Assembly (NCBI GenBank): GCA_021817785.1
Contig: JAKAFY010000001.1
Location: 26,446 to 90,445 of the forward strand
Origin: a bacterium
Lineage (GTDB): Bacteria > Patescibacteriota > Microgenomatia > UBA10105 > UBA927
Length of the DNA: 64,000 nucleotides
Reading direction: 5' to 3'
Part shown: positions 2,210-63,812 of the stretch, one piece after another
Layout: the number at the start of each line of letters is the position of its first letter
Numbering within the stretch: position 1 is the stretch's first letter
The notes under the pieces: generated by a model
Seen by the model: only the letters and a program-made list of their open reading frames with translations
Told to the model about the DNA's origin: nothing
The model's database searches: none
Made by a program: the position numbers and the translations under genes

Positions 2210-3000
2210 ATCAGGGTTTTTTCGTGTTCGTGTGTATCCTCTACTGATTTCCGGTTTTGCAATTCCCAAAGTTTGGCATACGTGATAAACAGACTGAATG
2301 CCTGGTATATGCTCTCCACCCAACCCACCGTACCGGCTCTCCATCCCCCCTGACGGAAATAGGAATTTCCGAAACCGGTTATTGCCACCCGCAAAAGGCG
2401 CCACCAGGATATACTCGGGTGCCCGGCGTGCAACCTGAGAAGCGCTTCGGTTTCCGACCAGTCATTCGTCTTTCTGACCATTTCCTCCAGGCTCCGGTGG
2501 GTATCATGGATCAGTTCCCCGGGCAAATCCCCGATCGCGCCGTCCGTTACCGCAGTTTCATGCAGTTCTCCCTTCCATCCCTTGAGTGCGGTACGCCGGA
2601 ATAGCCGGAGCATCCGTTCGTTTCCCGGCCACCGCTGGCCCAGATAATAATTGGTACGGCACAAACGGTAGCTTGTCGGCTTTTGCTGCGACCATGTGTC
2701 TATGGCCCGGCGTATTTCCCGCGCCAGAGGGGCGCTTACCACCTCATCGGCATCGACATAGAGAAGCCACTCGCCTGTTGCCCGTTTGGCGGCAGCATTC
2801 CGAAGCTCTGCAAAATCCCCCATCGAAAATATGGCGATATGTGCCCCGTGCGCACGGGATACCGCCACGGTTTCATCCGTTGAGCCGTTATCGGCTACCA
2901 GCACCTCATCGCAGAATGCGAGCGCATCGATGCAGGTAGCGATACGCATCGCTTCATTTTTGGCAATGATGATAGCACTAAGCGAATTTTTTCGGTTCAT
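2206..3000 (-). CDS. glycosyltransferase family 2
   Basis: ORF 2206..3033. The likely start is MNRKNSLSAIIIAKNEAMRIATCIDALAFCDEVLVADNGSTDETV (ATG at 3000). GT2 DxD/NGSTD-type N-terminus. Confidence 0.8.
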   Translation of the reverse strand: MNRKNSLSAIIIAKNEAMRIATCIDALAFCDEVLVADNGSTDETVAVSRAHGAHIAIFSMGDFAELRNAAAKRATGEWLLYVDADEVVSAPLAREIRRAIDTWSQQKPTSYRLCRTNYYLGQRWPGNERMLRLFRRTALKGWKGELHETAVTDGAIGDLPGELIHDTHRSLEEMVRKTNDWSETEALLRLHAGHPSISWWRLLRVAITGFGNSYFRQGGWRAGTVGWVESIYQAFSLFITYAKLWELQNRKSVEDTHEHEKTLI

Positions 3001-3898
3001 ATTGTTTTCCCCATTTCCCGAGCATCGCATCACGGATCGCCTGTTTTTTTACCGCGCTCCCGAACCATAAAAACCGCATGCTTTCCCGTATGAGCGCAAT
3101 TTTCGTACGCATCGGCGCGTACCGCATGCCGACCAACAGTCTGTTCCGGGTTATATAGTATTCATGCAGCATATTGCCTGCCCCGCCGGTAGAGCCGGCA
3201 TTGACATGCCAGACAACGGATCGCGGGTAATACACGAGCGTATACCCCCGGGCTTTTGCCCGCAGGCAATAATCCAGATCTTCAAGATAGAGATAAAAAT
3301 GTTCATCCAGAAACCCCACGGATTCCGCAACTGACCGGCGGATCATCATGGAACACCCGGTGATAAACGGTGTTTGTTCCACGGTGTCATACTGTCCGTG
3401 ATCCACTTCATCCACTCCCTTATGACTGGCATACATATTGTCCCAATCCACCAGCCCTCCGGCATACCAGAACACGTTTCCTCGTTCTGACGCACTATAC
3501 CGGTCGTGATGGTACTCGTGACCAGGGGCAAAATATATTTTCGATCCGGCAACTCCCACCGCTTTGTCATCAAATGCGGCCACCAACGACAGCGCATCAG
3601 GGTGTACCAGGGTATCGTTATTCAGTAGCCAAATAAAATCCGCCCCATGCTCCAGTGCATAGTTCATGCCGGCGTTATTGCCTCCCGTAAACCCCAGGTT
3701 GTGTTTCAACGCGATGCAATGGACCCACGGATAGTGGTTTCGTAACACGGAAACCGAGTCGTTGGTGGAACCGTTATCGACAACCACCGTCGTAAGCGTC
3801 ACCCCGCGCTTTTTCAGTTTCATGACGGAATCCAGACATCGGGCGGTGTCCGCTATTCCGTTCCAGTTCACGATGACGATCGCGACATGTTTTGGCAT
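2978..3898 (-). CDS. glycosyltransferase family 2 (rhamnosyl/galactosyl-transferase-like)
   Basis: MPKHVAIVIVNWNGIADTARCLDSVMKLK...VVVDNGSTNDSV, 306 aa. Typical GT2 A-type fold motifs. Confidence 0.8.
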   Translation of the reverse strand: MPKHVAIVIVNWNGIADTARCLDSVMKLKKRGVTLTTVVVDNGSTNDSVSVLRNHYPWVHCIALKHNLGFTGGNNAGMNYALEHGADFIWLLNNDTLVHPDALSLVAAFDDKAVGVAGSKIYFAPGHEYHHDRYSASERGNVFWYAGGLVDWDNMYASHKGVDEVDHGQYDTVEQTPFITGCSMMIRRSVAESVGFLDEHFYLYLEDLDYCLRAKARGYTLVYYPRSVVWHVNAGSTGGAGNMLHEYYITRNRLLVGMRYAPMRTKIALIRESMRFLWFGSAVKKQAIRDAMLGKWGKQYEPKKFA

Positions 3899-3899
3899 A

Positions 3900-4514
3900 T
3901 TAATAGGTAATAATTTTTATCCGTGCGTTGTCTATGTACGCCTCTGCCCGTATGGTGGACTGCGCCATCACGATATACCGCTTATTACCGGGATCCAATG
4001 TTATCACGGCGCTCTGATGGCTGGAGGTATTGGATTCTGTTTGCAGCTGGCTCCCCCATACGTCATGTCCGTCGGTTGCATTAAATAACTTTACGTGCAT
4101 CCACCCAATACCCACAGGAATCCTAAGATAGGATTCAAACGTTACCTGTTTGATTTTGGGATACAGCGACGTATCGATCGTCGCTTCCGCTCCGGGTATT
4201 GCTTCCCATTGGTCATTTTTGGTGGTACCGCTCCCCAACGGGACATAATATTCCTTCGGCGACGTATCGGCCTGCACCGGTGCGACGGACGGCGTCACGG
4301 CAGCAGCCGGATGATCCGTGAGTTTTGCGGTGATCAGACCGGCCATAACCGGCGTGCATGCCGCGGGGCATGCCGAGGGTGCCTCCACCGATATCGGAAC
4401 TGCCGGAGCAGTGTCGGACGCTTTCCCAAAAACGACGATATCGAGAAATACCGTGTTCGTCACGACAAACAACAGCGCTGTCGCTATAAGCAATGTGTTA
4501 AATCGACCGTCCAT
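3900..4514 (-). CDS. hypothetical membrane-anchored/secreted protein
   Basis: 204 aa with an N-terminal hydrophobic helix (LLIATALLFVVTNTVFL), then Ala/Pro/Thr-rich linker and a beta-rich C-terminal domain. No recognizable family. Embedded in the glycosylation operon. Confidence 0.5.
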   Translation of the reverse strand: MDGRFNTLLIATALLFVVTNTVFLDIVVFGKASDTAPAVPISVEAPSACPAACTPVMAGLITAKLTDHPAAAVTPSVAPVQADTSPKEYYVPLGSGTTKNDQWEAIPGAEATIDTSLYPKIKQVTFESYLRIPVGIGWMHVKLFNATDGHDVWGSQLQTESNTSSHQSAVITLDPGNKRYIVMAQSTIRAEAYIDNARIKIITY

Positions 4515-5409
4515 ATCGTCGGAGCAATTTGTACCAGACCTTCAGAACCGGATTTGTCGTATTGGTCATTTTTGACGTTATTTTCCAGTAGGCAACTTCT
4601 CCTCCGGACCGGTCAAACTCTTTCAACACGGAGGACAGCGGCATGTTCTGTTCGGGAAACCGTTCCCGCTCCCAAAGCTTGGCAAATATGATAAACGAAT
4701 AAAACGACTGCAGTATCGAAAGCACCAGACCGTGCAGTCCGTCTTTATACCCGGATTGCGCGAAGTATATTTTCAGAAAATCGGACACGGGAAAACGGAT
4801 TGCGTCCGGCCAGGTTACCCGGTATTTTGCATTGACATACTTTTGCACTTCGTTTTCTATATAGATCACCTGCATTTTTTCCAGATACTGCGCTATGGAA
4901 TCATAATTGTGATGGATATAGGGCGATAGCAGCGTCGCCGTGGGACCGGTGACCGCGATATATTCATGAACGTGTTTTTGCGGGAACGACCCTTTCCCTC
5001 TGCGGAACAGTCGCAATTGCCGATCCGGCCACCACAAACCGTGCTGGATCCAACGCCCGAAAATTATGTTTTTCCGGGGAATCCAAAATCCTGAAATATC
5101 CGAGGATACCGACCGTAACCTGGTGCGAATCTCTTTGGCCAGTTCGTCCGTGACTTCTTCATCGTCATCCAGGTTCAGGATCCATTCCGACGTGGCCTTT
5201 GTGAATCCGAAATTTTTATTGACGTTGAGCATCAGATTATTCGGCTTACTATAGACATGGGGAGTATATTTCTGGGCCACCGTCACCGTATCATCGGTGG
5301 AACCGGAATCCACGACGATAAGCTCATCGGCGAGCGACCGGACCGAAGCCAACGTACGTGCCAGGCTTTTTGACCTGTTATGAGTAGATATGACAACGCT
5401 TAGGCTCAT
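4498..5409 (-). CDS. glycosyltransferase family 2
   Basis: MSLSVVISTHNRSKSLARTLASVRSLADELIVVDSGSTDDT. ATGA overlap with upstream wzx stop. Confidence 0.8.
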   Translation of the reverse strand: MSLSVVISTHNRSKSLARTLASVRSLADELIVVDSGSTDDTVTVAQKYTPHVYSKPNNLMLNVNKNFGFTKATSEWILNLDDDEEVTDELAKEIRTRLRSVSSDISGFWIPRKNIIFGRWIQHGLWWPDRQLRLFRRGKGSFPQKHVHEYIAVTGPTATLLSPYIHHNYDSIAQYLEKMQVIYIENEVQKYVNAKYRVTWPDAIRFPVSDFLKIYFAQSGYKDGLHGLVLSILQSFYSFIIFAKLWERERFPEQNMPLSSVLKEFDRSGGEVAYWKITSKMTNTTNPVLKVWYKLLRRYGRSI

Positions 5410-6854
5410 GGTAATTTACGCAGTGACCGGATAAATCCCTGTATCCGCGCACGGTCAAGCACATATACCGTCACTGCATAAAGTATAACACCCGACGCCC
5501 CCGTAACACCCAACAACGGGATTGTCCGCGGCGTATGGGGAAGAACCAGCAGGTACCACAGGCCCTGTACGACGATCCCTGCTACTGCACTCCATATCTG
5601 TTCCCAAAACGAAAACGGGACGATCTTTTTTACCTCGACCAGCACCCAGATGATCGTCAGCGATATGACGCAGAGGGCTATGGCTACTCCGTTATATCCG
5701 AACAATTTTAGTCCGATCAGGGAAAATACCCAGGTAAGGAGCGTCCACAACACCATAAAAAACAACGTCGTCTTTATCTTCCCTACCGCATTTAATGCGT
5801 TGGTAAGCGGCGTCGTCAGTCCGGCCACTGCCGCCGTGACGACAAAAAAGTAAAACGAGGTCAGCGCCGGATTCCATTTTGCGTATTTGGGGATGATGTC
5901 CACCATCGGATGTACAAAAAACAGCAATCCCATGGAAATTGGGAGCATCGTAAGCGCCAGGCCGTAAATCGTTTTTTCTATCGCTTTGCGCAGGAGATTG
6001 ACGTCATGCTGCAGGCGGGCAAACGCCGGGAATGTCACCCGGATGATGCTGTCCATGATAAGCCGCAGCGGCACCTCTGCCCATTTTTTGGCCCATCCGA
6101 TGTATCCTACCTGGGCAAAAGGCAGGGCTTTCCCCAAAAATATGGTAAATAAGTCATCTTTGAGGAGAGCCAGAAAGGAATTCATCTGGAACGGCACGCC
6201 GAACCGCAACAGGCGGTGCAGCACGTCTTTTGAAAATCCGATGGATATCTTCCACGGACGGATCATATAAATAGTCGTAAGTCCTATGATCCCGCGCGCC
6301 AGCACGCCCCAGGTAAAGCTGGTAATCCCGAATCCCCGCCATGCCAGATAGACCGTTACCACATAGAACCCGAGCGTTTCCGCGATCGTCGGGATCACTA
6401 ATTTATCAAACTGCAATTCCCGCTCCAGAAGGATGGACGGAATAGTTTTCAGCGAGGAAAGGAAAAACGATACGATGAGTGCGCGAAACAGCCAGGTTCC
6501 GGCATCGTTGAGATGGTAGAAATGAGACACAAAACTGGAGCCGATGAACGAAATGATGACCAGGATAACGACCAGAATCTGCTGGATGGTAAATGTCGTC
6601 GTGACTTCGGCATCCGTCAGCGGTTCTTTCTTTTGGACCAACGCCGCTGCCAACCCGATATCAGAAAAATATCCCAAAAACGAAATGACGGCGGACACGA
6701 CATAATACACGCCGAAAATAGACGGAGTTAAAAGAAGCGTCAGCAAAAACGTCGCGGTAAAAGCGATAATCTGCAAAAGAAATGTCCGCGTCGTCAAGGC
6801 GACGATGCCCCGGATCGACCGTTTTTTCAGTGTCGCTATATCAATGTCTTGCAT
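5406..6854 (-). CDS. wzx: Wzx-type oligosaccharide flippase (MOP superfamily polysaccharide biosynthesis protein)
   Basis: 482 aa with about 12-14 predicted TM helices. N-terminus KRSIRGIVALTTRTFLLQIIAFTATFLLTLLLTPSIFGVYYVVSAVISF is typical of the Polysacc_synt/Wzx family. Confidence 0.75.
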   Translation of the reverse strand: MQDIDIATLKKRSIRGIVALTTRTFLLQIIAFTATFLLTLLLTPSIFGVYYVVSAVISFLGYFSDIGLAAALVQKKEPLTDAEVTTTFTIQQILVVILVIISFIGSSFVSHFYHLNDAGTWLFRALIVSFFLSSLKTIPSILLERELQFDKLVIPTIAETLGFYVVTVYLAWRGFGITSFTWGVLARGIIGLTTIYMIRPWKISIGFSKDVLHRLLRFGVPFQMNSFLALLKDDLFTIFLGKALPFAQVGYIGWAKKWAEVPLRLIMDSIIRVTFPAFARLQHDVNLLRKAIEKTIYGLALTMLPISMGLLFFVHPMVDIIPKYAKWNPALTSFYFFVVTAAVAGLTTPLTNALNAVGKIKTTLFFMVLWTLLTWVFSLIGLKLFGYNGVAIALCVISLTIIWVLVEVKKIVPFSFWEQIWSAVAGIVVQGLWYLLVLPHTPRTIPLLGVTGASGVILYAVTVYVLDRARIQGFIRSLRKLP

Positions 6855-7590
6855 AGGATTTATTTCTCCATGGCCGCGTTACAAAAAGCCGCCACAGTCC
6901 TTTGAGATCGCCAATCGCCGTCCGCATGACCCGGACCGTCGATCCGGGATTGTCGATCCATGTCACCGGTTCTTCATAGATCCTCAGTCCCTGCTTTTCC
7001 CCGACGAGCAGCAGTTCGGAATCAAAAAACCATTCGTTATCCACTATATCAGGAATAAGTTCATTCACCACACGCCGGGTTACCGCCTTAAACCCGCACT
7101 GCGCGTCGGTAAAATGGACAAAAAAGAACAGTTTGATAAGCATGATGTATCCTTTTGACGTGATGTTGCGCATCAGCCCCCTGCCGTAGACACGTGAGCC
7201 TTTTGTGTTGCGGCTGCCGATCGCTATATCGAATCCGCGTTCCAGTGCATGGAGAAGCGGCGGAAAATGCTGTAAATCCGTAGAAAGGTCTATGTCCATA
7301 TAGGCGACATACTCATCCCGGCATCTGCTCCATACGTACTTTACCGCCCGACCCCGCCCTTTTTCCGAAAGATGTACGAACGAAACGCCGGTGTGTGCGG
7401 CGGCAATTTTTTTGGCGATGGCGAGTGTGCCATCCGTTGATGCGTTGTCAGCGATCGTCACGTGCCACGAAAAGTCCGTAAGGTGCTTGGACAAAAATCC
7501 CACGAGGGTCGCAACGCTTTGCATAAGTTCGCGTTCTTCGTTATACACCGGCAAAACGATATTAACCCTTGGTTTTTCTTTGTTTGACAT
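6841..7590 (-). CDS. polyprenol-phosphate sugar synthase (DPM1/GtrB-like GT2)
   Basis: Likely start MSNKEKPRVNIVLPVYNEERELMQSV...TIADNASTDGT...DIDLSTD...QCGFKA. This matches the dolichol-phosphate mannosyltransferase-like motif set. Confidence 0.8.
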   Translation of the reverse strand: MSNKEKPRVNIVLPVYNEERELMQSVATLVGFLSKHLTDFSWHVTIADNASTDGTLAIAKKIAAAHTGVSFVHLSEKGRGRAVKYVWSRCRDEYVAYMDIDLSTDLQHFPPLLHALERGFDIAIGSRNTKGSRVYGRGLMRNITSKGYIMLIKLFFFVHFTDAQCGFKAVTRRVVNELIPDIVDNEWFFDSELLLVGEKQGLRIYEEPVTWIDNPGSTVRVMRTAIGDLKGLWRLFVTRPWRNKSYARH

Positions 7591-10757: not shown

Positions 10758-12277
10758 AACGCTTGAACACGTGGCGCCGTCACACGATAAAACCGAAGCT
10801 TCCGATCCGTACGGTTTCCTTTTTGGTACTCCCCGATGAGTGCCAGAGGCCATCCGGCGGGAGCCACCTGTGATTCATTCAGGATAAGATATGTTGGTCT
10901 GGACAGCGCTTCTTCCTGTATGCTGTCGGGTATCACGTTCGGCAAGGGCCAGATTCCTTTTATTTTTATATTCGGATTATCCACAAGATATATCTCGATG
11001 GAATACGGCATAAGCCCGAATGTCCCTTCCGTGTATACGTTTATCTTTTCGTGACGCACCTGTTCCCGAAGATACGACACTACTTCCGGCACGCCGCCGC
11101 CTGCCGGCCAGTCATTCATATACTGATATTGGTCGGATAACGGGATGGGTGCTGCGATCGGATTGGTGACGATCATATACGAGGTCATGGCAGCGGGACT
11201 AAGGAGGAGCACGACGAGCGCCAACCGGACCAGGGGGCGTTTGATCATATCCCACAGTTCCATGAAACTTTCCGCAGCCACAAGCAGCAGCGGGATAGTC
11301 ATAAACAAGGTAAACCGCGGATACAATATCTTGGCAAAGTTTGCCAGGGCGGCAAACGGCATCGCCCACCAGACATACAGCAGCCACCGCTCCCTCGCTT
11401 TTCCCCACCGGGTAAACAGCGGTACCAGGGTGACGACAAATACCGGCAGGGTGAGATAATTTCTCAGCCAGTCAAACATGCCCTTGAGGTTTCCCGCAAA
11501 AAAACGGAACGGCTGGTTAAGCCATTCCCGCGGGCTGAATATAAAGACGTTGTCTTTCTGCGAAACGATGTGAAAAAACGGGGATAACCGCAATACGCTA
11601 TAAAACACCTGGGACAGCACTGCCGAAACGATGACCAGTCCAGCCCATCGTGCCAGCCGGTTGAATCTGTGTTCTTTGCGCCAGTCAAACAGGATGAGGG
11701 TCAACGGCATCGCGTACAAGCTCAAAAAACCGGAACTTTTGTTGAGCATGCCGCACCCTAACACCATACCGAGGAGAAGCGCTATATCAAGCCGGACTTT
11801 CCGCACCAGAAGCACGGCCAGATACAGGCTCCAGACGGAAAACAGGGAGACCATGGAGTCATAAATCGCCATGCGGTCGTACCAAAGCGTAAACGGAATG
11901 ATCACGTATAATACGCCGGTAAACCATGACACCCGCCTGTCTCGAAAAAGTTCCCACGAAAGCACGCATACGCCGATAAGCGTACCGATCCCGGCCACCA
12001 CGGATGTCAACCGCCCCACGAACAGTGGGTCTACGCCTTTGAGTACTTTGAGTAACACCATCATGACCCAGGTAAACATCGGCTGTTTTCCGTCGGTCAG
12101 CGATATGAAGCGCCAATTGGGATCCCGCATCCCGATTTGCGACCAGCGGATGTAGATGGCTTCATCGGTAAATATAGGTAACTTCGTCAGATTCAGGAGC
12201 CGGGTAACAGCATACAGCGCGATAAGCGCTCCGAAACCAAGCAGTATGCCCCACCAAAACCGCTTTTTGTTTGCCAT
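10754..12277 (-). CDS. ArnT/PMT-family (GT39/GT83-like) membrane glycosyltransferase
   Basis: Likely start MANKKRFWWGILLGFGAL at ATG 12277, with GGAG 5 nt upstream and a TATAAT-like box. The motif LPIFTDEAIYIRWSQ is the conserved DE loop of polyprenol-phosphate-dependent GT-C enzymes. 507 aa with about 12 TM. Confidence 0.8.
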   Translation of the reverse strand: MANKKRFWWGILLGFGALIALYAVTRLLNLTKLPIFTDEAIYIRWSQIGMRDPNWRFISLTDGKQPMFTWVMMVLLKVLKGVDPLFVGRLTSVVAGIGTLIGVCVLSWELFRDRRVSWFTGVLYVIIPFTLWYDRMAIYDSMVSLFSVWSLYLAVLLVRKVRLDIALLLGMVLGCGMLNKSSGFLSLYAMPLTLILFDWRKEHRFNRLARWAGLVIVSAVLSQVFYSVLRLSPFFHIVSQKDNVFIFSPREWLNQPFRFFAGNLKGMFDWLRNYLTLPVFVVTLVPLFTRWGKARERWLLYVWWAMPFAALANFAKILYPRFTLFMTIPLLLVAAESFMELWDMIKRPLVRLALVVLLLSPAAMTSYMIVTNPIAAPIPLSDQYQYMNDWPAGGGVPEVVSYLREQVRHEKINVYTEGTFGLMPYSIEIYLVDNPNIKIKGIWPLPNVIPDSIQEEALSRPTYLILNESQVAPAGWPLALIGEYQKGNRTDRKLRFYRVTAPRVQAL

Positions 12278-25907: not shown

Positions 25908-25930
25908 ATAGTATGTATCTTATACGACGT

Positions 25931-26085
25931 TCGTTACTTTGTTACTTCGTTACTTTGTTACTTCGTTACTTTGTTACTTCGTTACTTTGTTACTTCGTTA
26001 CTTTGTTACTTCGTTACTTTGTTACTTCGTTACTTTGTTACTTCGTTACTTTGTTACTTTGTCAATTTGTCACTTTGTTAATTCC
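25931..26085. repeat. tandem repeat array, 16-bp unit TCGTTACTTTGTTACT (itself two 8-mers TYGTTACT), about 8 perfect 16-bp copies plus degenerate 8-mers
   Basis: Read directly: ...tcgttactttgttacttcgttactttgttact... x8, then ttgtcaatttgtcactttgttaatt. Lies between the tsaE stop (26070) and tsaC start (25907). The degenerate end overlaps the last tsaE codons. The period is not a multiple of 3. Confidence 0.85.
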
Positions 26086-26931: not shown

Positions 26932-27756
26932 TCATTCTCGTTTTATAATTTTTTTCCATACGTCTGTTTTCTGCCACGCGGTCGCAAACGAAAGCAATGC
27001 GAGTCCGCTGCCGATACACAAAAACGAAAAGACAAACGGCGATTGGCTGACCCGCGCGCCGCTTATGGTCGCCTCGTCGCTTGTCTCCGGTATCGCATCC
27101 GAGGTTTCCACACTCTCCGATGCGATTGCACTTCCCAGTATATCAGGATTTATTTGTTCCGTGGGTGACGGCGCGCCCGTCGATGACGGTGTCGCCGTGG
27201 GAGTGACGGATGGAGATGGTGTATGGGTAGCGGTGGGATTGGGCGTATTAGTAGGAGCAGTTGTAGTAGTCGGAACTGGCGTAGGCGTATGGGTAGGGCC
27301 GGTGATGGCAATAGTTACTTCCCCGCTCCACACCGAGGCGGAACTGCAGCTAGGCGTATACCGGCCTACCTTAAACAGATATTCTCCCGGGCCGTTGTAG
27401 TACGGGCTTGCCGTATCCGGCTTCACCTTCAATACCCCGCTCCAGGTCCCCTCTTTCGAAAGATCGGTTTGCAGGATTTTATAGTACTGGGTGCAGCTTC
27501 CTCCCGGCGCATTGGTCCACGTGCCGTCGTTACTCTGCGTATAGCCAAAGTAGCTTGATCCGCTGGGATAAAACGCCCCGCGCAGATAGGAGTCGGTGCT
27601 GCAGCTGGGGCAGGAAAACTGTACGGTGATTTCCGATTCCGCGTTTTCATCCAAAGTCGTAGGAACCGCGGAAAGCGAGAGCGTCTGCGTGCTCGCAGCA
27701 AGGACAAGCGGAACAAATAATTTCCCAATGACGCTGAACCATGGCAGATGGTTCAT
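26932..27756 (-). CDS. secreted surface protein with Pro/Thr-rich linker and C-terminal hydrophobic anchor
   Basis: Signal-peptide-like N-terminus (MNHLPWFSVIGKLFVPLVLAAS). Cys-containing beta domain. The linker ITGPTHTPTPVPTTTTAPTNTPNPTATHTPSPSVTPTATPSSTGAPSPT is low complexity. C-terminal FVFSFLCIGSGLALLSFATAW helix plus basic tail. Confidence 0.6.
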   Translation of the reverse strand: MNHLPWFSVIGKLFVPLVLAASTQTLSLSAVPTTLDENAESEITVQFSCPSCSTDSYLRGAFYPSGSSYFGYTQSNDGTWTNAPGGSCTQYYKILQTDLSKEGTWSGVLKVKPDTASPYYNGPGEYLFKVGRYTPSCSSASVWSGEVTIAITGPTHTPTPVPTTTTAPTNTPNPTATHTPSPSVTPTATPSSTGAPSPTEQINPDILGSAIASESVETSDAIPETSDEATISGARVSQSPFVFSFLCIGSGLALLSFATAWQKTDVWKKIIKRE

Positions 27757-27866
27757 TTGATATACCAGTGTACGGGATGTTTATGGAAAATTCTGTACGA
27801 TGGATTGCAGTACAGGTGTTGGGACGAAATCGGAACAACAATTAACGCTATCTTAAATTTTTGATT

Positions 27867-28508
27867 TTAGCCCTTAATTTGTTTCCTGAATTCATTCTTA
27901 ATATCAAGTATTAGCTTTTCATACTTATCTTTTACGGCTTTGTTTGTTTTAATAGTTGATTCTGCATCCTTTTTTGTGAATCCCAATTGCTGTGAGCTTT
28001 GAGGCGATGTGCTTCTGATATCAATAAGTTTCAGTTTTCCAAATCTAAATTGCTCAAATTGACTAAATAATTCCATTAATTTTTTGTAATGCGATTGTTC
28101 TATAAGTAGTGTATTCTCTTCAACAGCATTTTTCGTTAATCTTATCTGCTCAGAAAATGATGGGATTTTTTCAGGAGATGGGTTGTTCCAAAGCGCATCT
28201 GCCAGCTGTTTGGTTACCATTAAAATTTTCCAAAGATTATTATAGAGTTCAAATTGTTTTTCTGAGTATCTTAAAAAGAGTACTTTTGTTTTTTCCAATT
28301 CAGTTTTTGTTTTTTCTAGTTCGGTTTGATACTTATTTTTCAAATCTTCTAATCCTCGTTCATGTGAATTTTTATACTTTTCAAGTATCCCCTGAGAGAT
28401 AATTTCACCTAACCATTTTGCAATCGCAATAATTATTGCTCCAGCCCCAAAAGTGGAGATAAAAAATGCTGCCACGATATTAAATGCGCTTTGGAATGAT
28501 ACATTCAT
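27867..28508 (-). CDS. hypothetical protein, N-terminal TM plus coiled-coil (low-GC island gene A)
   Basis: ORF 27867..28541. Start at MNVSFQSAFNIVAAFFISTFGAGAIIIAIAKWLG (28508) avoids overlap with gene B. Lys/Glu-rich coiled-coil (ELEKTKTELEKTK). AT-rich codon usage unlike flanking genes. Confidence 0.5.
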   Translation of the reverse strand: MNVSFQSAFNIVAAFFISTFGAGAIIIAIAKWLGEIISQGILEKYKNSHERGLEDLKNKYQTELEKTKTELEKTKVLFLRYSEKQFELYNNLWKILMVTKQLADALWNNPSPEKIPSFSEQIRLTKNAVEENTLLIEQSHYKKLMELFSQFEQFRFGKLKLIDIRSTSPQSSQQLGFTKKDAESTIKTNKAVKDKYEKLILDIKNEFRKQIKG

Positions 28509-28510
28509 AA

Positions 28511-28867
28511 TTAATAATTTAGATTGTTTGCCCTTAACCAATCGTGTAGTTGATCGGGATCAACATTGTTAAACCCTAAATATCTGTTCTTAGTTAAATA
28601 TCCAATATGCTGCCCATTTAAATAAATTGCTGGGGGAGTACTTGTATAAGGGTTAAACGGACTTAATGAGGAATACTGACTTCCGTAGGTTCCATATTTG
28701 TTAAAAATTGATGTTGCGGAGTATTGATTCCCATAATATCCATAAGGGTTGGAAATTGATTCAGCATCAAAATTATTAAGCGAAAGTTTTCCAAGATATT
28801 GACCGTCATTAGCAAGTAAAAACGATTCATGGTTTTGAGCTTTTGCAAGGATTTGCTGAAATTCCAT
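28511..28867 (-). CDS. hypothetical protein with NPYG/Tyr-Gly-rich repeats (island gene B)
   Basis: 118 aa with SNPYGYYGNQYSATSIFNKYGTYGSQYSSLSPFNPYTSTPP repeat-like region. No family recognized. Confidence 0.45.
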   Translation of the reverse strand: MEFQQILAKAQNHESFLLANDGQYLGKLSLNNFDAESISNPYGYYGNQYSATSIFNKYGTYGSQYSSLSPFNPYTSTPPAIYLNGQHIGYLTKNRYLGFNNVDPDQLHDWLRANNLNY

Positions 28868-28885
28868 ATAATAATTTTTAAAACG

Positions 28886-29578
28886 CTAAGCCATCTCTTT
28901 ATCGTATTTTTGGGTTAATAATTCAGCTTCTATCCAGTGAGTTGTTAATTTTATCAATTCTTTTAGATTACTTATGTCTTTATCTGTCCAAGTTCGATAG
29001 TAATGAACCTCATCGTTTCCTAGCCACGCCGCTCTCTCAGTACATTTTTTAATATTTGTATCATCTATCAGAGCTAAGACAGGTGCGAGTGTCTTATATT
29101 TTTTAATTTCCTCTGCTCGTTCAGGGTATTTTACAGATAGGTAATCTTTAACTAAGTACTCCAGACTCTTCCTATAGCCTCCACCACAAACCTCATCTAA
29201 ACCCATTGATTCTGCTATATAAGCTTGATTATATATTCTTCGAAATTTAGGCGACGTCATGTTAATTTCATTAGGAAATTCAATTGGTTTAAAATACTCA
29301 GGGACTCCAACCTGGGCCAATGTAAAATAATCGCCATGACGTCCCACCTTGGAATAATATGCAATAAAATATCTCTTACATTCGTTGCGAGAACACTTAA
29401 AAACAACTTCAACTATTTCGTCATAGTCCCATAACGCACCCAAATTTTGAGAATTCTTAAATATTGGACTTGTTGGTTTTCCACACCTCCCGCAGATATC
29501 AGGAAAGTCGTTTATCGTAATTGAACCACGACTTCCTTCATTAATCTCTAACGATATCAAAGATGTATCTCTAGCCAT
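28886..29578 (-). CDS. zinc-ribbon plus DUF4145-like domain protein (island gene C)
   Basis: 230 aa. N-terminal Cys4 (CGRCGKPTSP...CSRNECKRY). C-terminal ERAAWLGNDEVHYYRTW resembles the DUF4145 R-x-GN-x-x-H core. The assignment is tentative. Confidence 0.5.
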   Translation of the reverse strand: MARDTSLISLEINEGSRGSITINDFPDICGRCGKPTSPIFKNSQNLGALWDYDEIVEVVFKCSRNECKRYFIAYYSKVGRHGDYFTLAQVGVPEYFKPIEFPNEINMTSPKFRRIYNQAYIAESMGLDEVCGGGYRKSLEYLVKDYLSVKYPERAEEIKKYKTLAPVLALIDDTNIKKCTERAAWLGNDEVHYYRTWTDKDISNLKELIKLTTHWIEAELLTQKYDKEMA

Positions 29579-29777
29579 ATAATTAGCAACATCGTACCAC
29601 TACTTAACCTAAAGTCAATTGTTTTTAAGTAATGGTTTCGCGCCGCCGCGTTAATGCGAGTCAAGGGAGCGTTCGCGCACTCGTTCAATCCTTCACATCC
29701 GTGAAAGACATCAACCCGCCACGCTGATTAGTTTTACACCTCGTCCCATAGGCTACCTCGTCCAAGTTTATTAGTTC

Positions 29778-29798
29778 GCACCCCCGGTGTGTGGGCAG
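29778..29798. repeat. GC-rich palindromic element copy 1 (variant CGCACCCCCGGTGTGTGGGCA)
   Basis: Read in the divergent C/D intergenic region. Shares the GCAC..CC..GG..GGTGTG..GGG core with copies 2-4 but has the central CCGGGGG inverted to CCCCCGG. Confidence 0.5.
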
Positions 29799-29869
29799 AT
29801 AACTCCCATAGAGGTCATATTGTTAGCAGATGAAAAGATGTAATTTAGAGCGTATAATTGCCCTTTACT

Positions 29870-30502
29870 ATGAATTACGAACGTATTTTGCCTCATACAA
29901 CCGAACGGGAGATTGTTCGTGAAGCTGCTTCCAAGAGTCCATTACATTTGGTTTTCGCGGGCGCATCAAGTACAGGAAAAACAACAATGATGGAGATATT
30001 GAGTACGCAGATTGGAGTACCAACCATACCGGAAACGGCACGCTCAATCATAAAAGAACAGGGTTGGAAACGTGAAGACTTAGACAATGCCGCCACACTG
30101 TATGATCTTCAGCAGCGGATTGTAACCAAACAGTACGAACAAGAAATTGTGCTCGCACACGTACCACATTGTTCTGATCGAAGTATCTTTGATCCCCTAG
30201 TGTACGCAGAAATGTATCTCGGGCTGGAAGCGATGGAAAAACTCAAACAGATGCCGGAATATTCCGGGATAGATACCATATATAAAAATGCGCTATTTAT
30301 CGTTATCGAACCAAACGAACGCACATTTCGTAATGATGGGGTTCGGATTTTACCGGATATTCAATTCGCACGGGAATTTAATAACCGCATTAAACGGATT
30401 TTAGAGGACTATAAATTGCCCTACATAGAAATACACTCGGCCTCTATACACGAGCGCGAGGAGGAAATCTATAGAAAGCTGGCACAAAAACTTCTTTTGT
30501 GA
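29870..30502 (+). CDS. P-loop NTPase (AAA_28/NadR-like ATPase or kinase) (island gene D)
   Basis: ORF 29858..30502 starts on TTG inside a TATAAT box; ATG at 29870 (MNYERIL) is more likely. Walker A LVFAGASSTGKTTMMEIL and a Walker B-like LFIVIEPNE. Confidence 0.6.
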   Translation: MNYERILPHTTEREIVREAASKSPLHLVFAGASSTGKTTMMEILSTQIGVPTIPETARSIIKEQGWKREDLDNAATLYDLQQRIVTKQYEQEIVLAHVPHCSDRSIFDPLVYAEMYLGLEAMEKLKQMPEYSGIDTIYKNALFIVIEPNERTFRNDGVRILPDIQFAREFNNRIKRILEDYKLPYIEIHSASIHEREEEIYRKLAQKLLL

Positions 30503-30510
30503 GCTTGTTT

Positions 30511-30532
30511 CGTACACCGGGGGTGTGGGTGA
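30511..30532. repeat. GC-rich palindromic element copy 2 (CGTACACCGGGGGTGTGGGTGA)
   Basis: Nine nt after the stop of island gene D. Stem CACACC / GGTGTG around GGG. Confidence 0.7.
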
Positions 30533-30547
30533 ATAGTTTCTTCATTT

Positions 30548-30964
30548 TTGACTTATAATAATTTCCGGTGTACTATTTGTCCGATGGCACGCGTATATCA
30601 CACCGGCGGAAAAGAAGATACTATAATCGGATTTACAGCTGTCGAGTTTAACGCTAATAATCACACCCTCCGAATAACAACTGACTCACCCAAATCCCTC
30701 GCCAACTGGATACGGAGAGACCTCCGTAGAGGTGATATATCTCTTTGGCTCGCATCCGAAGACAAAGCTGATTTAGCGTACACATCAGATATATTAAAAC
30801 GGCGGGTTATTACTCGTGATCGAGGTTCATTGGCATTTCGCCTACGGGAATCAGGGACGGCAAAAGTCACAATATACCCTTCACGAATGAGCCGGAAACA
30901 AATTAAACCCATTGAGTTACCTGTATTCGCAGAGTTATTTTTTAGACCGTCGCACGACGCCTGA
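30548..30964 (+). CDS. hypothetical protein (island gene E)
   Basis: 138 aa ORF with no recognizable motifs. Alternative start at MARVYHTGG (30584). Confidence 0.4.
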   Translation: MTYNNFRCTICPMARVYHTGGKEDTIIGFTAVEFNANNHTLRITTDSPKSLANWIRRDLRRGDISLWLASEDKADLAYTSDILKRRVITRDRGSLAFRLRESGTAKVTIYPSRMSRKQIKPIELPVFAELFFRPSHDA

Positions 30965-31016
30965 AGTTAGATACGTACAATCTTTATTACGCGTTCTCGA
31001 AAATGAACATCCACTA

Positions 31017-31424
31017 TTAGGCGGTGGTGCGTACCATTTTTTGGGGGAAATTTATCCCAAGAAAATAATCAGTAGGTTTATGTGACGCTAGGAGTGCTTT
31101 GATTTGATCCACAACCGGCAGTTTTAATGACTTAATATCAAATGGCGTTCTCATGTCTAAGTGGATGCTGGCAAACGACATCGGGTGAAGCAGATCCGCA
31201 GCATCAGCGGTTAATGTTTCTAACAGCGGGCGTTCTTGAGACTTGGCCATCAATGTAACGTTAACGTATTTATGTACTTGATACGGCTTTACTACTTTCC
31301 AGCCTTTTGAGTGCGCTACGCGATCTTCGGTGGTTCTAAACAGTAAATCTCCCTTCTGGTTCATTTCAAGAGAGGCTTCTTTAATCATGGAAGAAATTAT
31401 ACCTATTTTTGAAGAAAATGTCAA
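31017..31424 (-). CDS. hypothetical protein (island gene F)
   Basis: 135 aa ORF. Possible internal start MIKEASLEMNQ. No recognizable motifs. Confidence 0.4.
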   Translation of the reverse strand: MTFSSKIGIISSMIKEASLEMNQKGDLLFRTTEDRVAHSKGWKVVKPYQVHKYVNVTLMAKSQERPLLETLTADAADLLHPMSFASIHLDMRTPFDIKSLKLPVVDQIKALLASHKPTDYFLGINFPQKMVRTTA

Positions 31425-31442
31425 CTATAGGCTATATATTTT

Positions 31443-31497
31443 ACGCACACCGGGGGTGTGGGTGAGTAGGCATTACATCGACAGCCGGTCGACTTCG
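31443..31497. repeat. direct repeat copy 3: palindromic element ACGCACACCGGGGGTGTGGGTGA plus a duplicated gene 3' end (..ACATCGACAGCCGGTCGACTTCG)
   Basis: About 52-bp repeat nearly identical to 31813..31864. Its minus-strand reading gives ..HEVDRLSM-stop, a remnant of the C-terminal codons (..FEVDRLSI-stop) of the gene at 31840..33042. Confidence 0.75.
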
Positions 31498-31557
31498 TGA
31501 AAATTTCATTCTTACAAAAGCCCAGCGTGTGAGGTTGATCATTTCGAACAGGAACTA

Positions 31558-31770
31558 TTAATGACCTCCAAACGGCCAATGTAATCCCTTTTTTCTAGTT
31601 TTCTGTTCATTCTTCTTCCAATCTTCGCCCGTTTCACCAAATGGATGACATGGCATAGGACACACAACACTTCCACCAGGAATTTTATCCAGATTTGGTT
31701 TTTTGACCTTTAATTTAGTTCCGTCACCCCAATCTACTTCTTTTACTTTAGTTTCGTTTTTACCACCCAT
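31558..31770 (-). CDS. hypothetical small protein (island gene G)
   Basis: ORF 31558..31818. Likely start MGGKNETKVKEVDWG (31770). Lys-rich with a CPMPCHPFG motif. Flanked by the ~52-bp direct repeats. Confidence 0.35.
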   Translation of the reverse strand: MGGKNETKVKEVDWGDGTKLKVKKPNLDKIPGGSVVCPMPCHPFGETGEDWKKNEQKTRKKGLHWPFGGH

Positions 31771-31812
31771 AAGAAGAGAGATTATAACAGAATTAGTTAT
31801 TAAACAAAAATA

Positions 31813-31864
31813 ACGCACACCGGGGGCATGGGTGAAAAATTATATTGACAGCCGGTCGACTTCG
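31813..31864. repeat. direct repeat copy 4: palindromic element ACGCACACCGGGGGCATGGGTGA plus the authentic 3' end of the C39-like peptidase gene
   Basis: Overlaps the stop codon (31840) of the PcsB-like gene. Same ~52-bp unit as copy 3. Confidence 0.75.
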
Positions 31865-33042
31865 AAGACGCTTCCCAGGGAATAGCTATCCGTAAACACT
31901 TTGTCGTGTCCCCCGTCCTGATAGGGATCGTTCATGATGTACTGGCCGTTGGAGTAGGATTTTATGACGACAAAGTGCGTATCAAATGGTCCATAATTAA
32001 TTCCAACAATAACTGGACCATCTTTAACCAAATCAGGACTTAATTTATATCCGACACTAAATCTATTAATAGTTACTCCCTTTACGCTTATAAAGCCTTT
32101 AAGTAACATTGCTGTTCCAACGGAAAAATTACTTGGATCAGATACGGCGATATCTAGTGGCTTAATATCGGTGCGTCCTAAATGACTTGCTACCATGGCA
32201 ACAGATGTAACAAGACATCCGACACGAGCAATACTACATGACCCATTACAATCGTTTCTCCCGTTTATTAATACATTCCCCCACTGGCTGTCCCGCTGGT
32301 TGTAATAGCATCCCCAACTATCGCAGTGCGTTTGTCCCGACAGCAATCCGCCGCCCTGGCTGGTCGCAAAGCTTGCAAATCCTGCCAGCTGCGCCCGCGC
32401 GGCAGCCAGTAAGCTCTGGTATTTGCTCTCGTCATTTTGGGTTTGGGACAGAAGCGACTGTTTCTCGCTTTTTTGCTGGGCCAGCAAATTGGTGCGCTGC
32501 ACGAGCTGTTTATTGAGCGCTTCCTGCTCTATGCGCTTTTTCTCCCGCATGTCTTTCCGGTCGTTATAGTCGTTTTGGGTAAGCTGCAGCTGTTTATACA
32601 GCTGGGTGTCTTCTTCCTGCAGTTGCATCAGGTACTTTGCCCTGGTAATCATCTCGGTAAAGTCGGAACTAAACAGCAGCCACCCGAACTGCGACGCGGT
32701 CGACCGTTTGTACGACTGCGGTATGCGGTACAGCACCATCTGCAGCCGTTGGGTTTTCAGATCCTCCAGCTTGCCGATTTCGCCGTCCAGCTGGTTTATC
32801 TCTCCGTCCAGCGCCGTAATTTTCCGTTTGGTATCGTCTATCTGCAGACTCGTCAGCGTAATCTGGGAATTGAGAAGCGTGATTTGTTTGGACAGGGTGT
32901 CTTTCTGTGTCTGCAGTCCCGCAATGGTTTGCTCCAGTGTTGCGATCGTCGTCTGCAAATCCGTCTGGGAATCCGCAAAAACCCTCACGGACACAAGCGT
33001 GAGTATAAAGACGATGACGCCGATCTGAAGAATTTTTTTCAT
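31840..33042 (-). CDS. secreted coiled-coil protein with C-terminal C39-like (papain-fold) cysteine peptidase domain; PcsB/EnvC-like FtsEX-associated hydrolase candidate
   Basis: 400 aa with signal peptide (MKKILQIGVIVFILTLVSVRVFA), a long Q/L-rich coiled-coil (aa 25-230), and a C-terminal domain. That domain carries HCDSWGCYYNQ...CSIARVGCLVTSVAMVASHLG...GINYGPFDTHFVVIKSY...NDPY, matching the Peptidase_C39_2 Cys/His arrangement. Sits immediately downstream of ftsX. Confidence 0.7.
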   Translation of the reverse strand: MKKILQIGVIVFILTLVSVRVFADSQTDLQTTIATLEQTIAGLQTQKDTLSKQITLLNSQITLTSLQIDDTKRKITALDGEINQLDGEIGKLEDLKTQRLQMVLYRIPQSYKRSTASQFGWLLFSSDFTEMITRAKYLMQLQEEDTQLYKQLQLTQNDYNDRKDMREKKRIEQEALNKQLVQRTNLLAQQKSEKQSLLSQTQNDESKYQSLLAAARAQLAGFASFATSQGGGLLSGQTHCDSWGCYYNQRDSQWGNVLINGRNDCNGSCSIARVGCLVTSVAMVASHLGRTDIKPLDIAVSDPSNFSVGTAMLLKGFISVKGVTINRFSVGYKLSPDLVKDGPVIVGINYGPFDTHFVVIKSYSNGQYIMNDPYQDGGHDKVFTDSYSLGSVFEVDRLSI

Positions 33043-61470: not shown

Positions 61471-61695
61471 ATATTCAGTAAAAAAAGCCTCCCCAGGAGC
61501 ATATATATTCCGGGGAGACACTACGTTATAAATTCATCGGGTACGCGTTTAGGCGTACCAACCAGCTAGAATTCTCTCAAACTTATATACCCTTGTCAAG
61601 TCCCGATAGCCTCAAAAAATGGCTATCGTGGATGCACGATCCCGGCTTCGCCGAGGATCGGCACGCATATATAATATTTGATAAAATACAATGTA

Positions 61696-61947
61696 ATGTT
61701 CTTTGTTTATATACTTAAATCGATTAAGTCAGGAACTTATTACATAGGATGCACAAACGATATCGAGAGAAGATTAAAAGAGCATAATTCAGGTATTAGC
61801 ATCTACACAAAAACCGATAAACCATGGAAATTATGTTACAATGAAGCGTTCAATTCGTTATCGGAAGCAAGAAAAAGAGAAAATCAAATTAAATCGTGGA
61901 AAAAACGTAAAGCGATTGAGAAATTAATACAGGCCCCCATCGTCTAG
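61696..61947 (+). CDS. GIY-YIG nuclease-family small protein (UPF0213-like)
   Basis: MFFVYILKSIKSGTYYIGCTNDIERRLKEHNSG. AT-rich. The last 5 codons overlap the tRNA-Glu 5' end. Confidence 0.6.
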   Translation: MFFVYILKSIKSGTYYIGCTNDIERRLKEHNSGISIYTKTDKPWKLCYNEAFNSLSEARKRENQIKSWKKRKAIEKLIQAPIV

Positions 61948-62006
61948 CGGCCTAGGACGGTTCCTTCTCAAGGAACAAATCGTCGGTCCGAATCCGACTG
62001 GGGGTA
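61933..62006 (+). tRNA. tRNA-Glu (anticodon CUC)
   Basis: Hand-folded cloverleaf: acceptor GCCCCCA/TGGGGGT, D-stem GTCT/GGAC, anticodon stem GTTCC/GGAAC with loop TTCTCAA (anticodon CTC), T-stem GTCGG/CCGAC with loop TCCGAAT, discriminator A. Confidence 0.8.
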
Positions 62007-62014
62007 CATACAAT

Positions 62015-62046
62015 AAATCGCTTGGCAATGCCGAGCGATTTTTTGT
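62015..62046 (+). terminator. rho-independent terminator after tRNA-Glu
   Basis: AATCGCTTGGC-AAT-GCCGAGCGATT hairpin followed by TTTTTTG. Confidence 0.55.
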
Positions 62047-62405
62047 ATACGCCAGACGGTGAGGAACGACCAACGGTGCGTCGACTGGTTCGTTAGCGAG
62101 CTAATTCTGATTGGCGAGCTTACGAACCATCGATCCTCGAAGGGGAAATCCGACTGGAGGCGAACCGCGTACGGTGCGCGCCGCTTTGAACGAAGTGAAA
62201 AGCAAGTACTCTCGGAGTAAATCCGACATGGCTATCGTGTTGAATCATCAATCTGTCAACACCCGGTGTTGGTAAAGCTAAAATTTGGAGTATGAATTAT
62301 GGCCAACTCAAGGCTAATTCCAAATGTATAAATAGTACGATTTTGTAAAATAGATTACATCGGAATATAACAGTTAATGATATATTATAAGACACTTAAG
62401 TCATC

Positions 62406-62639
62406 ATGGTTATGTGTTTAAAACGGATTGAAAAAAATAATGCAATTGATGCATTGGAAAAGGCCCTTGAAGCTCACGCGGCAGCGTATCAGGCCGGAGG
62501 ATGGGGAGCCTTATCCCCATACGCACAAAAATTGCATGAGCTAGATGAGATAGCATTTCGATCAGCACGCGCTCCAAAAGGTGGTAAGCAAGCTCGACTT
62601 TTGCGTGGATACCAAGAGGTGCGCCGTCGATTCTTCTAA
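62406..62639 (+). CDS. hypothetical small protein
   Basis: 77 aa ORF in the AT-rich region downstream of the tRNA. No motifs. Confidence 0.3.
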   Translation: MVMCLKRIEKNNAIDALEKALEAHAAAYQAGGWGALSPYAQKLHELDEIAFRSARAPKGGKQARLLRGYQEVRRRFF

Positions 62640-62708
62640 TGCCATTTTGGCTTCTACTTCCACGGACATCAGACGAAGATCACACAACATCCAATTCCGT
62701 TGGCATCT

Positions 62709-63347: not shown

Positions 63348-63470
63348 TTACCACTATATACCGCAGTGAAAAAAAGTTCCAATTCGTTCCAAACTGATGT
63401 ACTACATACCATTCGGTCTACGGCTATAACGCAAATTTCACCCATACACTGAAGGCGCAGAGCTCCAGAA

Positions 63471-63812
63471 CTATGAAGATGTATGTACTCCCCTAGCGCC
63501 CATATACACCATGACCAACAACACAATTGCTTCTATATGATACCCATCCGGACGAAGAAGTCTTTGCATAAATGCGGTATTTTGATGAAAGACTACATGA
63601 AATACGACGGAAATGGGCAACGTAAACCACAGCCACGCTGTCCGGGAAACACGTACGGAGAATTTTGCAGCCAGTCGGGACAGGATCGGTGCCAAAATAT
63701 AGATCCCTATATAGGAGACGACGACATCAAAAATCGCATACGGACCAATCCGGAAGTGCCGCAGATATGTTATATCTATCACCCGTATAGTGTACCAGAT
63801 GCTTTCCTCCAC
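63471..63812 (-). CDS. hypothetical membrane protein
   Basis: 113 aa, hydrophobic. No motifs. Confidence 0.3.
   Translation of the reverse strand: MEESIWYTIRVIDITYLRHFRIGPYAIFDVVVSYIGIYILAPILSRLAAKFSVRVSRTAWLWFTLPISVVFHVVFHQNTAFMQRLLRPDGYHIEAIVLLVMVYMGARGVHTSS

Follow-up and report, generated by a model that had tools for sequence, protein, structure and literature searches.

Probable mosaic origin of an AT-rich islet at the 3' end of a pcsB-like gene in a Patescibacteriota genome

We analysed a stretch of 64,000 nucleotides (the window) from a member of the Patescibacteriota, or candidate phyla radiation (CPR) (contig JAKAFY010000001.1 of assembly GCA_021817785.1), which carries seven small open reading frames (ORFs), A to G, in an AT-rich islet at the 3' end of a gene for a PcsB-like peptidase (pcsB in what follows). 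The islet is foreign, horizontally acquired DNA. Its make-up probably reflects a history of accretion, in which at least three to four separate acquisitions formed a mosaic in a variable slot of the genome, and not a single operon or system. The block distal to pcsB would consist of two independent mobile modules, namely the single gene C and the gene pair B-A. The block next to pcsB holds the cassettes D, F (with E) and G, which would have arisen by repeated insertion at one attachment-site-like (att-like) site overlapping the pcsB 3' end.

Composition of the islet and its variable slot

The base composition sets the islet apart from its surroundings. Outside it, the guanine plus cytosine (GC) content, computed in 500-nt windows across the 64 kb, has a mean of 0.516 (standard deviation 0.035), and it falls from about 0.52 to 0.32-0.45 across approximately 27,830-32,260, a length of about 4.4 kb. 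Two compositional blocks can be told apart within this span, a distal block of GC about 0.33 (0.32-0.33 at 27,750-29,250) and a pcsB-proximal block of GC about 0.43 (0.40-0.44 at 29,250-32,250). The GC content at third codon positions (GC3), taken per gene, is 0.26-0.29 in A, B, C and G (G itself 0.25), as against 0.58-0.68 in the flanking genes used for comparison, i.e. those for the surface protein, TsaE, FtsX and FtsE and the 5' part of pcsB. A first-pass annotation, made by reading the window without database searches, had placed a single low-GC island at 27,800-31,870, inserted at the 3' end of a gene for an FtsEX-linked, PcsB-like C39 peptidase. The GC and GC3 profiles bear out the island, and its host gene and place of insertion are confirmed as well; a span of about 27,830-32,260 replaces the earlier boundaries, the right edge lying past 31,870 and about 420 nt inside pcsB, and the island is made of two blocks instead of one. 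The seven listed ORFs are all present, and six of them (A, B, C, D, F and G, at the sizes given in Table 1) are called by public gene callers on identical contigs; E is not. Contigs from seven independent samples or assemblies (ENA, NCBI GCA_027424485.1 and Logan) carry the same gene arrangement, and therefore the islet is not a chimera or an artefact of assembly. No RNA genes were found across the islet (Rfam at E<=1; ARAGORN), and islet DNA gave no match to phage and plasmid records.

The surrounding locus has the order RF2, a hypothetical gene, FtsE, FtsX, the PcsB-like C39_2 peptidase, a putative surface protein of 274 aa, a protein of 190 aa (which we take to be VanZ-like, as a bare label), TsaE, Sua5 and TsaB, and the order RF2-FtsE-FtsX-PcsB-surface protein-TsaE-Sua5-TsaB is kept across relatives. 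The closest public genomes are those of Candidatus Gottesmanbacteria and other Microgenomates metagenome-assembled genomes; the host itself belongs to Candidatus Gottesmanbacteria, and the relatives compared at the junction between pcsB and the surface-protein gene have 53-80% PcsB identity. This junction is empty or short (55-88 bp) in loci L009, L011, L030, L034 and L178, and is filled with other small genes in L008, L031, L172/L173 and L176 (Table 1). Genes A to G are absent from the locus of every relative examined, and the inserts in the four filled junctions show no deviance in composition. The motif CATCGTACAGA is kept just upstream of the surface-protein gene in all loci compared; in the window it lies inside a terminator-like CTGTAC/GTACAG hairpin (27,793-27,815), with the left edge of the islet just beyond. 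The conservation of this motif on the surface-protein side indicates that insertions fall between the pcsB stop codon and the native terminator. The pcsB-to-surface-protein junction is a strain-variable slot, an insertion hotspot with empty, differently filled and heavily filled states, a possibility that the first-pass annotation had raised for the pcsB 3' end. CPR bacteria have tiny genomes with few recognised defence systems or mobile elements, and such a hotspot would show how they sample accessory genes.

A Cys-rich ORF of about 78 aa, convergent with pcsB, was noticed in L031 (6,190-6,440) and in L172 (1,250-1,480), and by eye the two seem related. As L031 and L172 thus seem to share the ORF, the 'variable' spacer may in part be a long-standing gene with patchy retention rather than a recent insertion. 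We also considered half of a hairpin at the edges of the inserts in L031 and L009; this idea was dropped, the left 'half' in L031 lying inside a small coding gene.

Gene C and the B-A pair

Gene C belongs to a widespread family (phrog_1305 at E=2e-38), with hundreds of homologues in CPR, Leptospira, Pseudomonas, Bacillaceae, Elizabethkingia and Streptococcus prophages, several of which are named DUF4145 by NCBI. Among 39 homologues, C32, C62 and C67 do not vary, C29 is conserved in at least 90%, and the block RAAWLGNDExH contains the invariant residues G187, N188, D189 and H192 and the nearly invariant R182. In the structure model the N-terminal region consists of beta strands (predicted local distance difference test score (pLDDT) 80-90) and the C-terminal domain matches HEPN folds. 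DUF4145 has been assigned to the HEPN RNase superfamily, and zinc-ribbon fusions were noted there (PMC3710099). PD-T7-4, renamed RAZR in 2026, is an abortive-infection RNase with a zinc finger and a DUF4145-HEPN domain, and is active on assembly around ring-shaped phage proteins (PMC13017515). By its architecture, gene C is a candidate for an enzyme of this kind, and its most likely action is that of a RAZR-like abortive-infection RNase, which would stay inactive until triggered by a phage protein. The islet supplies a CPR representative of the zinc-ribbon-HEPN architecture, the mechanism of which was solved only in 2026.

The neighbourhoods of gene C homologues agree with a role in defence. 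In pneumococcal prophages they sit between a cI-like repressor and cro, the homologue in phage AP45 adjoins a NERD nuclease and HicAB, and on CPR contigs they are found by an NmeDI-like endonuclease and a serine recombinase, or by MazE, GIY-YIG and ImmA-type genes. The homologue with 80% identity is solitary. Homologues of A or B were never found beside those of gene C, and a conserved C-B-A operon was rejected on this ground. Some observations tell against too close a parallel with RAZR. Gene C itself has no match to Pfam DUF4145, whereas 21 of the 39 homologues do; the label of a zinc-ribbon, DUF4145-like protein given in the first-pass annotation is supported through the family to which gene C belongs. 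R182 and H192 are nine residues apart, a longer spacing than the canonical Rx4-6H; RAZR has R146/H154. PADLOC models (E<=0.01) recognised neither gene C nor its 39 homologues, save for two stray matches, and a profile search of PDB sequences returned no RAZR chain, both negatives being limited by the unconfirmed membership of RAZR in these libraries. Given the longer spacing and the lack of a PADLOC or PDB sequence match, RAZR-like action is likely and orthology with RAZR is unproven.

B and A are the only islet genes that travel together, the start of A lying 2 nt past the stop codon of B. The pair is present in L165-L171, with 61-77% identity for gene B, and B-A identity overall is 57-77% across Bacteroidales, CPR and a viral contig. 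Another CPR genome carries the pair at a different locus, on a 731-kb contig (77% and 72% identity), and Xylanibacter and other Bacteroidales carry it at 61% and 58%; it is abundant in gut Bacteroidales. The GC content of the pair is 0.29-0.33 in all contexts. In Bacteroidales a ResIII helicase and an Eco57I/MmeI-type methyltransferase immediately precede the pair and a DUF2971 protein comes after it, HipA being close by, and on an IMG/VR viral contig it stands beside a Dam-type methylase ORF and a reverse-transcriptase ORF, both recognised by eye. In L165 (IMG/VR, 2,400-6,900), as read by eye from translations, B-A is adjoined by a Dam-type methylase-like ORF and an apparent diversity-generating retroelement, which comprises a reverse-transcriptase ORF and, in a target gene, variable and template segments that are near-repeats.

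The Tyr/Gly/Ser-rich domain of gene B, of about 95 aa, has no Pfam model and was found in 3,209 representative clusters, often in tandem or at the C terminus. In several longer matches (P0361-P0510) it is fused to PKD, InlB B-repeat, Fn3-associated, type IX secretion system (T9SS)-tail or trypsin modules, and these fusions to secreted and surface modules point to an extracytoplasmic domain. On viral contig L179, a CI/LexA-type repressor ORF (by eye) is followed by a B-domain protein that has a signal peptide, and this relative of gene B lies in a phage lysogeny module. The gene A model (pLDDT 81) shows a transmembrane (TM) helix running into the long helix, and the four-helix bundle. By guilt by association, we infer that B-A is a mobile, envelope-associated pair with a role in phage exclusion or defence, and it represents a widespread unannotated module of restriction-modification neighbourhoods. 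It counts against such a role that the structure matches of gene A are generic sensor-type four-helix bundles only, and that neither gene has a functional annotation, Pfam and PADLOC being silent on both.

Hairpin-bounded cassettes and the end of pcsB

The pcsB-proximal block is divided by a 29-nt hairpin repeat, TCACCCACACCCCCGGTGTGCG, with the core CACACC-GGG-GGTGTG, which is found at 29774, 30508, 31441 and 31811 (hp1 to hp4). Three matches lie within 3 mismatches, vs 0 in shuffles; no copy was found elsewhere in the 64 kb, all four lying within 2.1 kb. From pcsB outwards come U4 (the end of pcsB with hp4), G, U3 (a pcsB remnant with hp3), F with E, hp2, D, hp1, a spacer, C, B-A and, last, the native terminator, and the four repeats split three cassettes (D, E+F and G) of 0.37-0.95 kb with one or two genes each. 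The last 26 nt of pcsB (31839-31864) are duplicated at 31472-31497, with 24/26 positions identical (92%) and an exact core of 18 nt, which confirms the duplication of the 3' codons of the host gene read in the first-pass annotation. U3 and U4 form a direct repeat of about 57 nt bracketing the 367-370-bp G cassette. G is thus flanked by units that include the pcsB 3' end, and the boundaries of F/E and D have the 29-nt hairpin part only. The palindrome had been described as marking the cassette boundaries in general; it bounds the D-G cassettes, but not A, B or C. Its stem is 6 bp and its loop 3 nt, and a fold slightly more stable than that of shuffles was seen for hp3 and an extended hp2 only. 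With the T-run that follows it, hp4 is probably the present terminator of pcsB. The three-cassette, four-repeat array would be a compact natural record of serial insertion.

A fifth, degenerate copy of the hairpin at the left edge (~27,812-27,826) was rejected, the resemblance being too weak. Dispersed palindromes of the repetitive extragenic palindrome (REP) or bacterial interspersed mosaic element (BIME) kind find no support, since the copies are clustered within 2.1 kb with none elsewhere in the 64 kb, which was the extent of readable sequence. Two unrelated metagenome contigs with unrelated contexts and a GC of 0.44, L055 (1,271-1,296) and L154 (2,616-2,640), contain one and the same 25-nt version of the hairpin, ACACACACCGGGGGTGTGGGTGAAC, between genes; in L055 it comes after a TM/coiled-coil gene, downstream of a large helicase-like ORF (type-III-restriction-like, from translation only). 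This version may be due to chance or may belong to a wider family of the repeat.

The cargo of the cassettes is for the most part without relatives. Gene D is the exception, matching Pfam AAA_28 (E=8e-23, profile positions 3-164 of 164), dNK (1.6e-4), the NadR/RNK structures 6gye and 1lw7 in PDB (E about 7e-5 to 8e-5) and a thymidylate-kinase-like PHROG family. Its score for the NCBIfam NadR domain is far below the NadR equivalog cut-off, and it is therefore a member of the family and not an orthologue; a viral-contig search gave nothing useful. These matches class gene D as a NadR-type kinase and not as a defence-type NTPase. Gene F has no family or PDB match and one negligible viral-contig match, gene G has no match in Pfam, PHROGs, NCBIfam, PADLOC or viral contigs, and ORF E, with a weak codon-position GC pattern, has no family, PDB or viral-contig match. 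A promoter scan found a consensus promoter before F and promoter-like sites before G, D and C; the genes are not all read in one direction. Recombinase, relaxase and transposase domains are absent from A-G according to Pfam, PHROGs and NCBIfam. The spacer at 29579-29857 was considered as an RNA or a relic, and this was rejected, as its folding is no better than that of shuffles and it has no similarity to relatives and no ORF.

The composition of the islet continues into pcsB, which is identified by Pfam Peptidase_C39_2 (E=1e-6) and weak CC_PcsB/EnvC/PcsB matches. The 5' part of the gene has a GC of 0.52 and a GC3 of 0.68; the L008 and L009 orthologues hold a GC of 0.5-0.6 over the 3' stretch that is AT-rich here (Table 1). 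In the 5' part the window and L008 form the closest pair. In the 3' stretch their nucleotide identity is 0.66-0.71, vs 0.77-0.83 between L008 and the more distant L009, and PcsB protein identity to P0003 is 88% in the N-terminal and 76% in the C-terminal part. These comparisons suggest, with moderate confidence, that the 3' ~420 nt of pcsB were replaced by incoming DNA and the gene was left intact.

Three cassettes that lack a recombinase and are set off by a single repeat in four copies make up the pattern of serial insertion at an att-like site. We propose that D-G arose by tandem accretion of decayed, integrase-less elements, that each new arrival pushed the older cassettes away from pcsB, and that the newest one also brought the present 3' ~420 nt of pcsB, the gene staying intact. 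Because the repeat was found nowhere else, we infer the mechanism of recombination from this pattern. Several points weigh against the proposal. The analysis found neither a recombinase nor an autonomous parent element nor a circular form; the hairpin repeat had 0 matches in viral contigs and was not found in other occupied relatives; and a metagenome scan with an 18-mer of the repeat, a poor choice, was uninformative (120 loci, nearly all of them the conserved coding motif GPNTGGMG, purD by eye, or chance). As hp1 and hp2 lack a pcsB-derived part and the stem of hp4 is degraded, the att interpretation rests on four short repeats. The discordance of PcsB at the protein level is modest, and C-terminal mosaicism is general in the PcsB family. 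Finally, D may simply serve in the salvage of nucleotides or NAD.

The alternative that fares best, which we regard as possible although on the unlikely side, is transformation with DNA of related, lower-GC Gottesmanbacteria, followed by homologous recombination or homology-facilitated illegitimate recombination (HFIR) anchored in pcsB, without any site-specific recombination. The donor's pcsB 3' domain, terminator hairpin and downstream gene would have replaced the resident end, and an illegitimate joint would have left the resident last 26 nt, with their own hairpin, behind. HFIR in natural transformation is established (PMC8116780), no recombinase was found in A-G, and the 3' ~420 nt of pcsB are contiguous with G and of the same composition. 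In L008, the two copies of the pcsB 3' end encode the same 28 residues on hand translation and differ at synonymous sites only, as if the 87-nt copy came from the functional gene of a donor, and this second copy abuts the cargo and does not flank it. HFIR accounts well for the replacement of the pcsB 3' end, for the 26-nt remnant and for the structure of L008, but leaves unexplained hp2 and hp1 (90% and 69% identity to the 29-nt sequence), which lie around D and far from the pcsB remnant, and the presence of three cassettes with exactly four repeats; moreover, relatives at 70-80% PcsB identity do not have this hairpin after the stop codon.

The L008 locus, from the closest GTDB relative, has features of its own. 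Its 87-nt pcsB 3' duplicate (within 11,105-11,334) is separated by 53 nt from the intact copy upstream, with a different hairpin, CAACCC-GTC-GGGTTG, in the interval, and the 196-aa gene after the two copies is an orphan.

A further, speculative reading, to which we give only a small chance, goes beyond serial accretion. In it, B-A would be an undescribed inter-phylum mobile two-gene module for phage exclusion or defence, and/or the hairpin mini-cassettes would reveal the pcsB 3' end as a site of cassette capture, on which a recombinase from another part of the genome acts in trans; the mechanism of such a site, in CPR, could be integron-like but unrelated to integrons.

It is very improbable that A to G together make up a single uncharacterised system of defence or toxin immunity, built around a DUF4145 protein and a P-loop NTPase, which was the interpretation offered in the first-pass annotation. 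The variable hotspot, the small products without known relatives and the HEPN family of gene C would fit such a system. However, the islet is divided into two compositional blocks with internal repeat boundaries, each cassette has a promoter-like site, and genes are in mixed orientation. The proposed pairing of DUF4145 and NTPase fails, since the homologues of gene C are solitary or lie among unrelated genes, with none of A, B and D beside them, and D, a NadR-type kinase outside the defence ATPase families, is in a separate and compositionally different cassette; B-A, the only genes to co-travel, do so without C or D. No toxin-immunity signature was found, and PADLOC-DB 2.0.0 recognised no known defence protein; D gave only weak P-loop noise (E about 0.01), and the six other genes gave no match.

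Hardly more can be said for D-G as an integron-like array without integrase, i.e. a cluster of attC sites lacking an integron-integrase (CALIN), with the hairpins as attC sites. Units of one or two genes between imperfect palindromes, in an array that begins at a fixed site, recall this arrangement, but no R''/R' box pairs (RYYYAAC...GTTRRRY) at 40-150 nt spacing were found on either strand of 27,700-32,000, the short stem and loop fold in most copies no better than shuffles, and the cassettes have their own promoters and differing orientation, with no IntI. That the region is native, as a vertically inherited, fast-evolving AT-rich stretch or as an assembly chimera, is scarcely credible: the spacer downstream of pcsB does vary in many relatives without compositional anomaly, but seven independent assemblies agree on the arrangement, none of the relatives examined has A-G, B-A are 57-77% identical to genes of Bacteroidales, another CPR genome and a viral contig, and GC3 drops by about 0.35.

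Two other features of the window were noted. A second AT-rich stretch (61,678-64,000, GC 0.41-0.45) begins at tRNA-Glu (61933-62007), where a small GIY-YIG nuclease gene (61678-61947, + strand) abuts or overlaps the tRNA gene, and contains a membrane-anchored, Mrr_cat restriction-endonuclease-like gene (62709-63347, - strand; Pfam E=3e-26); it may be a second islet, with its far boundary beyond the end of the window. Between the Sua5/TsaC-like and TsaE genes (25,930-26,080) lies a 16-nt tandem repeat, TTCGTTACTTTGTTAC, in 9.4 copies with 96% matches, which on the + strand gives rise to spurious 'LLRYFVTSLLCYFVT' ORFs.

Table 1. Features of the islet and its host locus (positions in the window), followed by the filled junctions of relatives (length of junction).
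Feature	Position or length	Strand	Description
Native intergenic DNA	27757..27830	-	Upstream of the 274-aa surface-protein gene; compared with the L008, L030, L031 and L034 sites
Gene A, 213 aa	27867..28508	-	N-terminal TM helix, long helix, four-helix bundle; second gene of the B-A pair
Gene B, 118 aa	28511..28867	-	Tyr/Gly/Ser-rich domain protein without signal peptide; first gene of the B-A pair
Gene C, 230 aa	28886..29578	-	N-terminal Cys4 zinc ribbon and C-terminal DUF4145/HEPN-like helical domain
Non-coding spacer	29579..29773		Between the two compositional blocks; GC 0.45 over 29579-29857; promoter-like site for C, TTGACT-16-TACGAT
hp1	29774..29802		Most diverged copy; flanks alike, loop flipped (GGG for CCC, this strand)
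Gene D, 210 aa	29870..30502	+	P-loop AAA_28 / NadR ribosylnicotinamide-kinase-like small kinase
hp2	30508..30536		Between D and E; 90% identical to hp3
ORF E, 126-138 aa	30548..30964	+	Convergent with F; putative, coding status uncertain
Gene F, 123 aa	31017..31388	-	Orphan; perfect TTGACA-17-TATAAT promoter, 31424-31396 (12/12)
U3	31441..31497	-	26-nt non-coding pcsB 3' remnant (31472-31497) and hp3 (31441-31469)
Gene G, 70 aa	31558..31770	-	Cys/His-containing orphan (ORF to GTG at 31818); TTGTTT...TATAAT promoter-like site upstream
U4	31811..31864	-	Last 26 nt of pcsB with stop codon, and hp4 (31811-31839); stem degraded, T-run after
pcsB 3' ~420 nt	31840..32262	-	Island-like composition, GC 0.41, GC3 0.36
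pcsB-like gene, 400 aa	31840..33042	-	Signal peptide, coiled coil, C39_2 peptidase domain; directly downstream of ftsE, ftsX
L008 junction	827 bp		87-nt second copy of own pcsB 3' end, then 196-aa gene on opposite strand
L031 junction	729 bp		Two small genes
L172/L173 junction	305 bp		Small Cys-rich ORF
L176 junction			129-aa gene

Comparison with known systems

Gene C resembles RAZR/PD-T7-4 in being a single gene of about 215-230 aa with an N-terminal Cys4 zinc ribbon, a C-terminal divergent HEPN domain of the DUF4145 type and a conserved Arg and His, and in belonging to a family that spans many phyla and occurs on mobile DNA. It differs in having no detectable sequence match to RAZR, a larger N-terminal domain and a CPR host, and in the nine residues between R182 and H192, as compared with R146/H154. 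At the level of the whole islet, the variable slot between conserved genes, the AT-rich cargo, the HEPN protein and the occurrence of its modules elsewhere beside restriction-modification and toxin genes are reminiscent of defence islands and hotspots. In contrast to these, no islet gene is recognised by PADLOC, and the gene D cassette looks metabolic rather than defensive. Integron arrays and CALINs share with D-G the short cassettes, the palindromic sites between them and the addition at one end, but D-G have neither attC boxes nor an integrase, and have their own promoters and mixed orientation.

Tandem accretion at the 3' end of a target gene is exemplified by ICESt1 and ICESt3 at fda; integrative and conjugative elements (ICEs) of this type are not known from CPR bacteria. 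Integrase-less cis-mobilisable elements (CIMEs) and microCIMEs have been found accreted in tandem at a target gene (PMC7563491). As in these, the D-G units lack an integrase, carry direct att-like repeats and are stacked by a housekeeping gene, the repeat nearest to pcsB includes the 3' end of the gene, and the gene is intact. The D-G units differ in being tiny (0.37-0.95 kb), in having a 29-nt hairpin as the repeat with gene-derived sequence in two copies only, and in that no parent ICE, integrative and mobilisable element (IME), phage or cognate integrase was identified for them in the viral contigs, metagenomes and 64 kb. A hotspot islet as such is a known type, and the remaining novelty lies mostly in the B-A module and the hairpin mini-cassettes.

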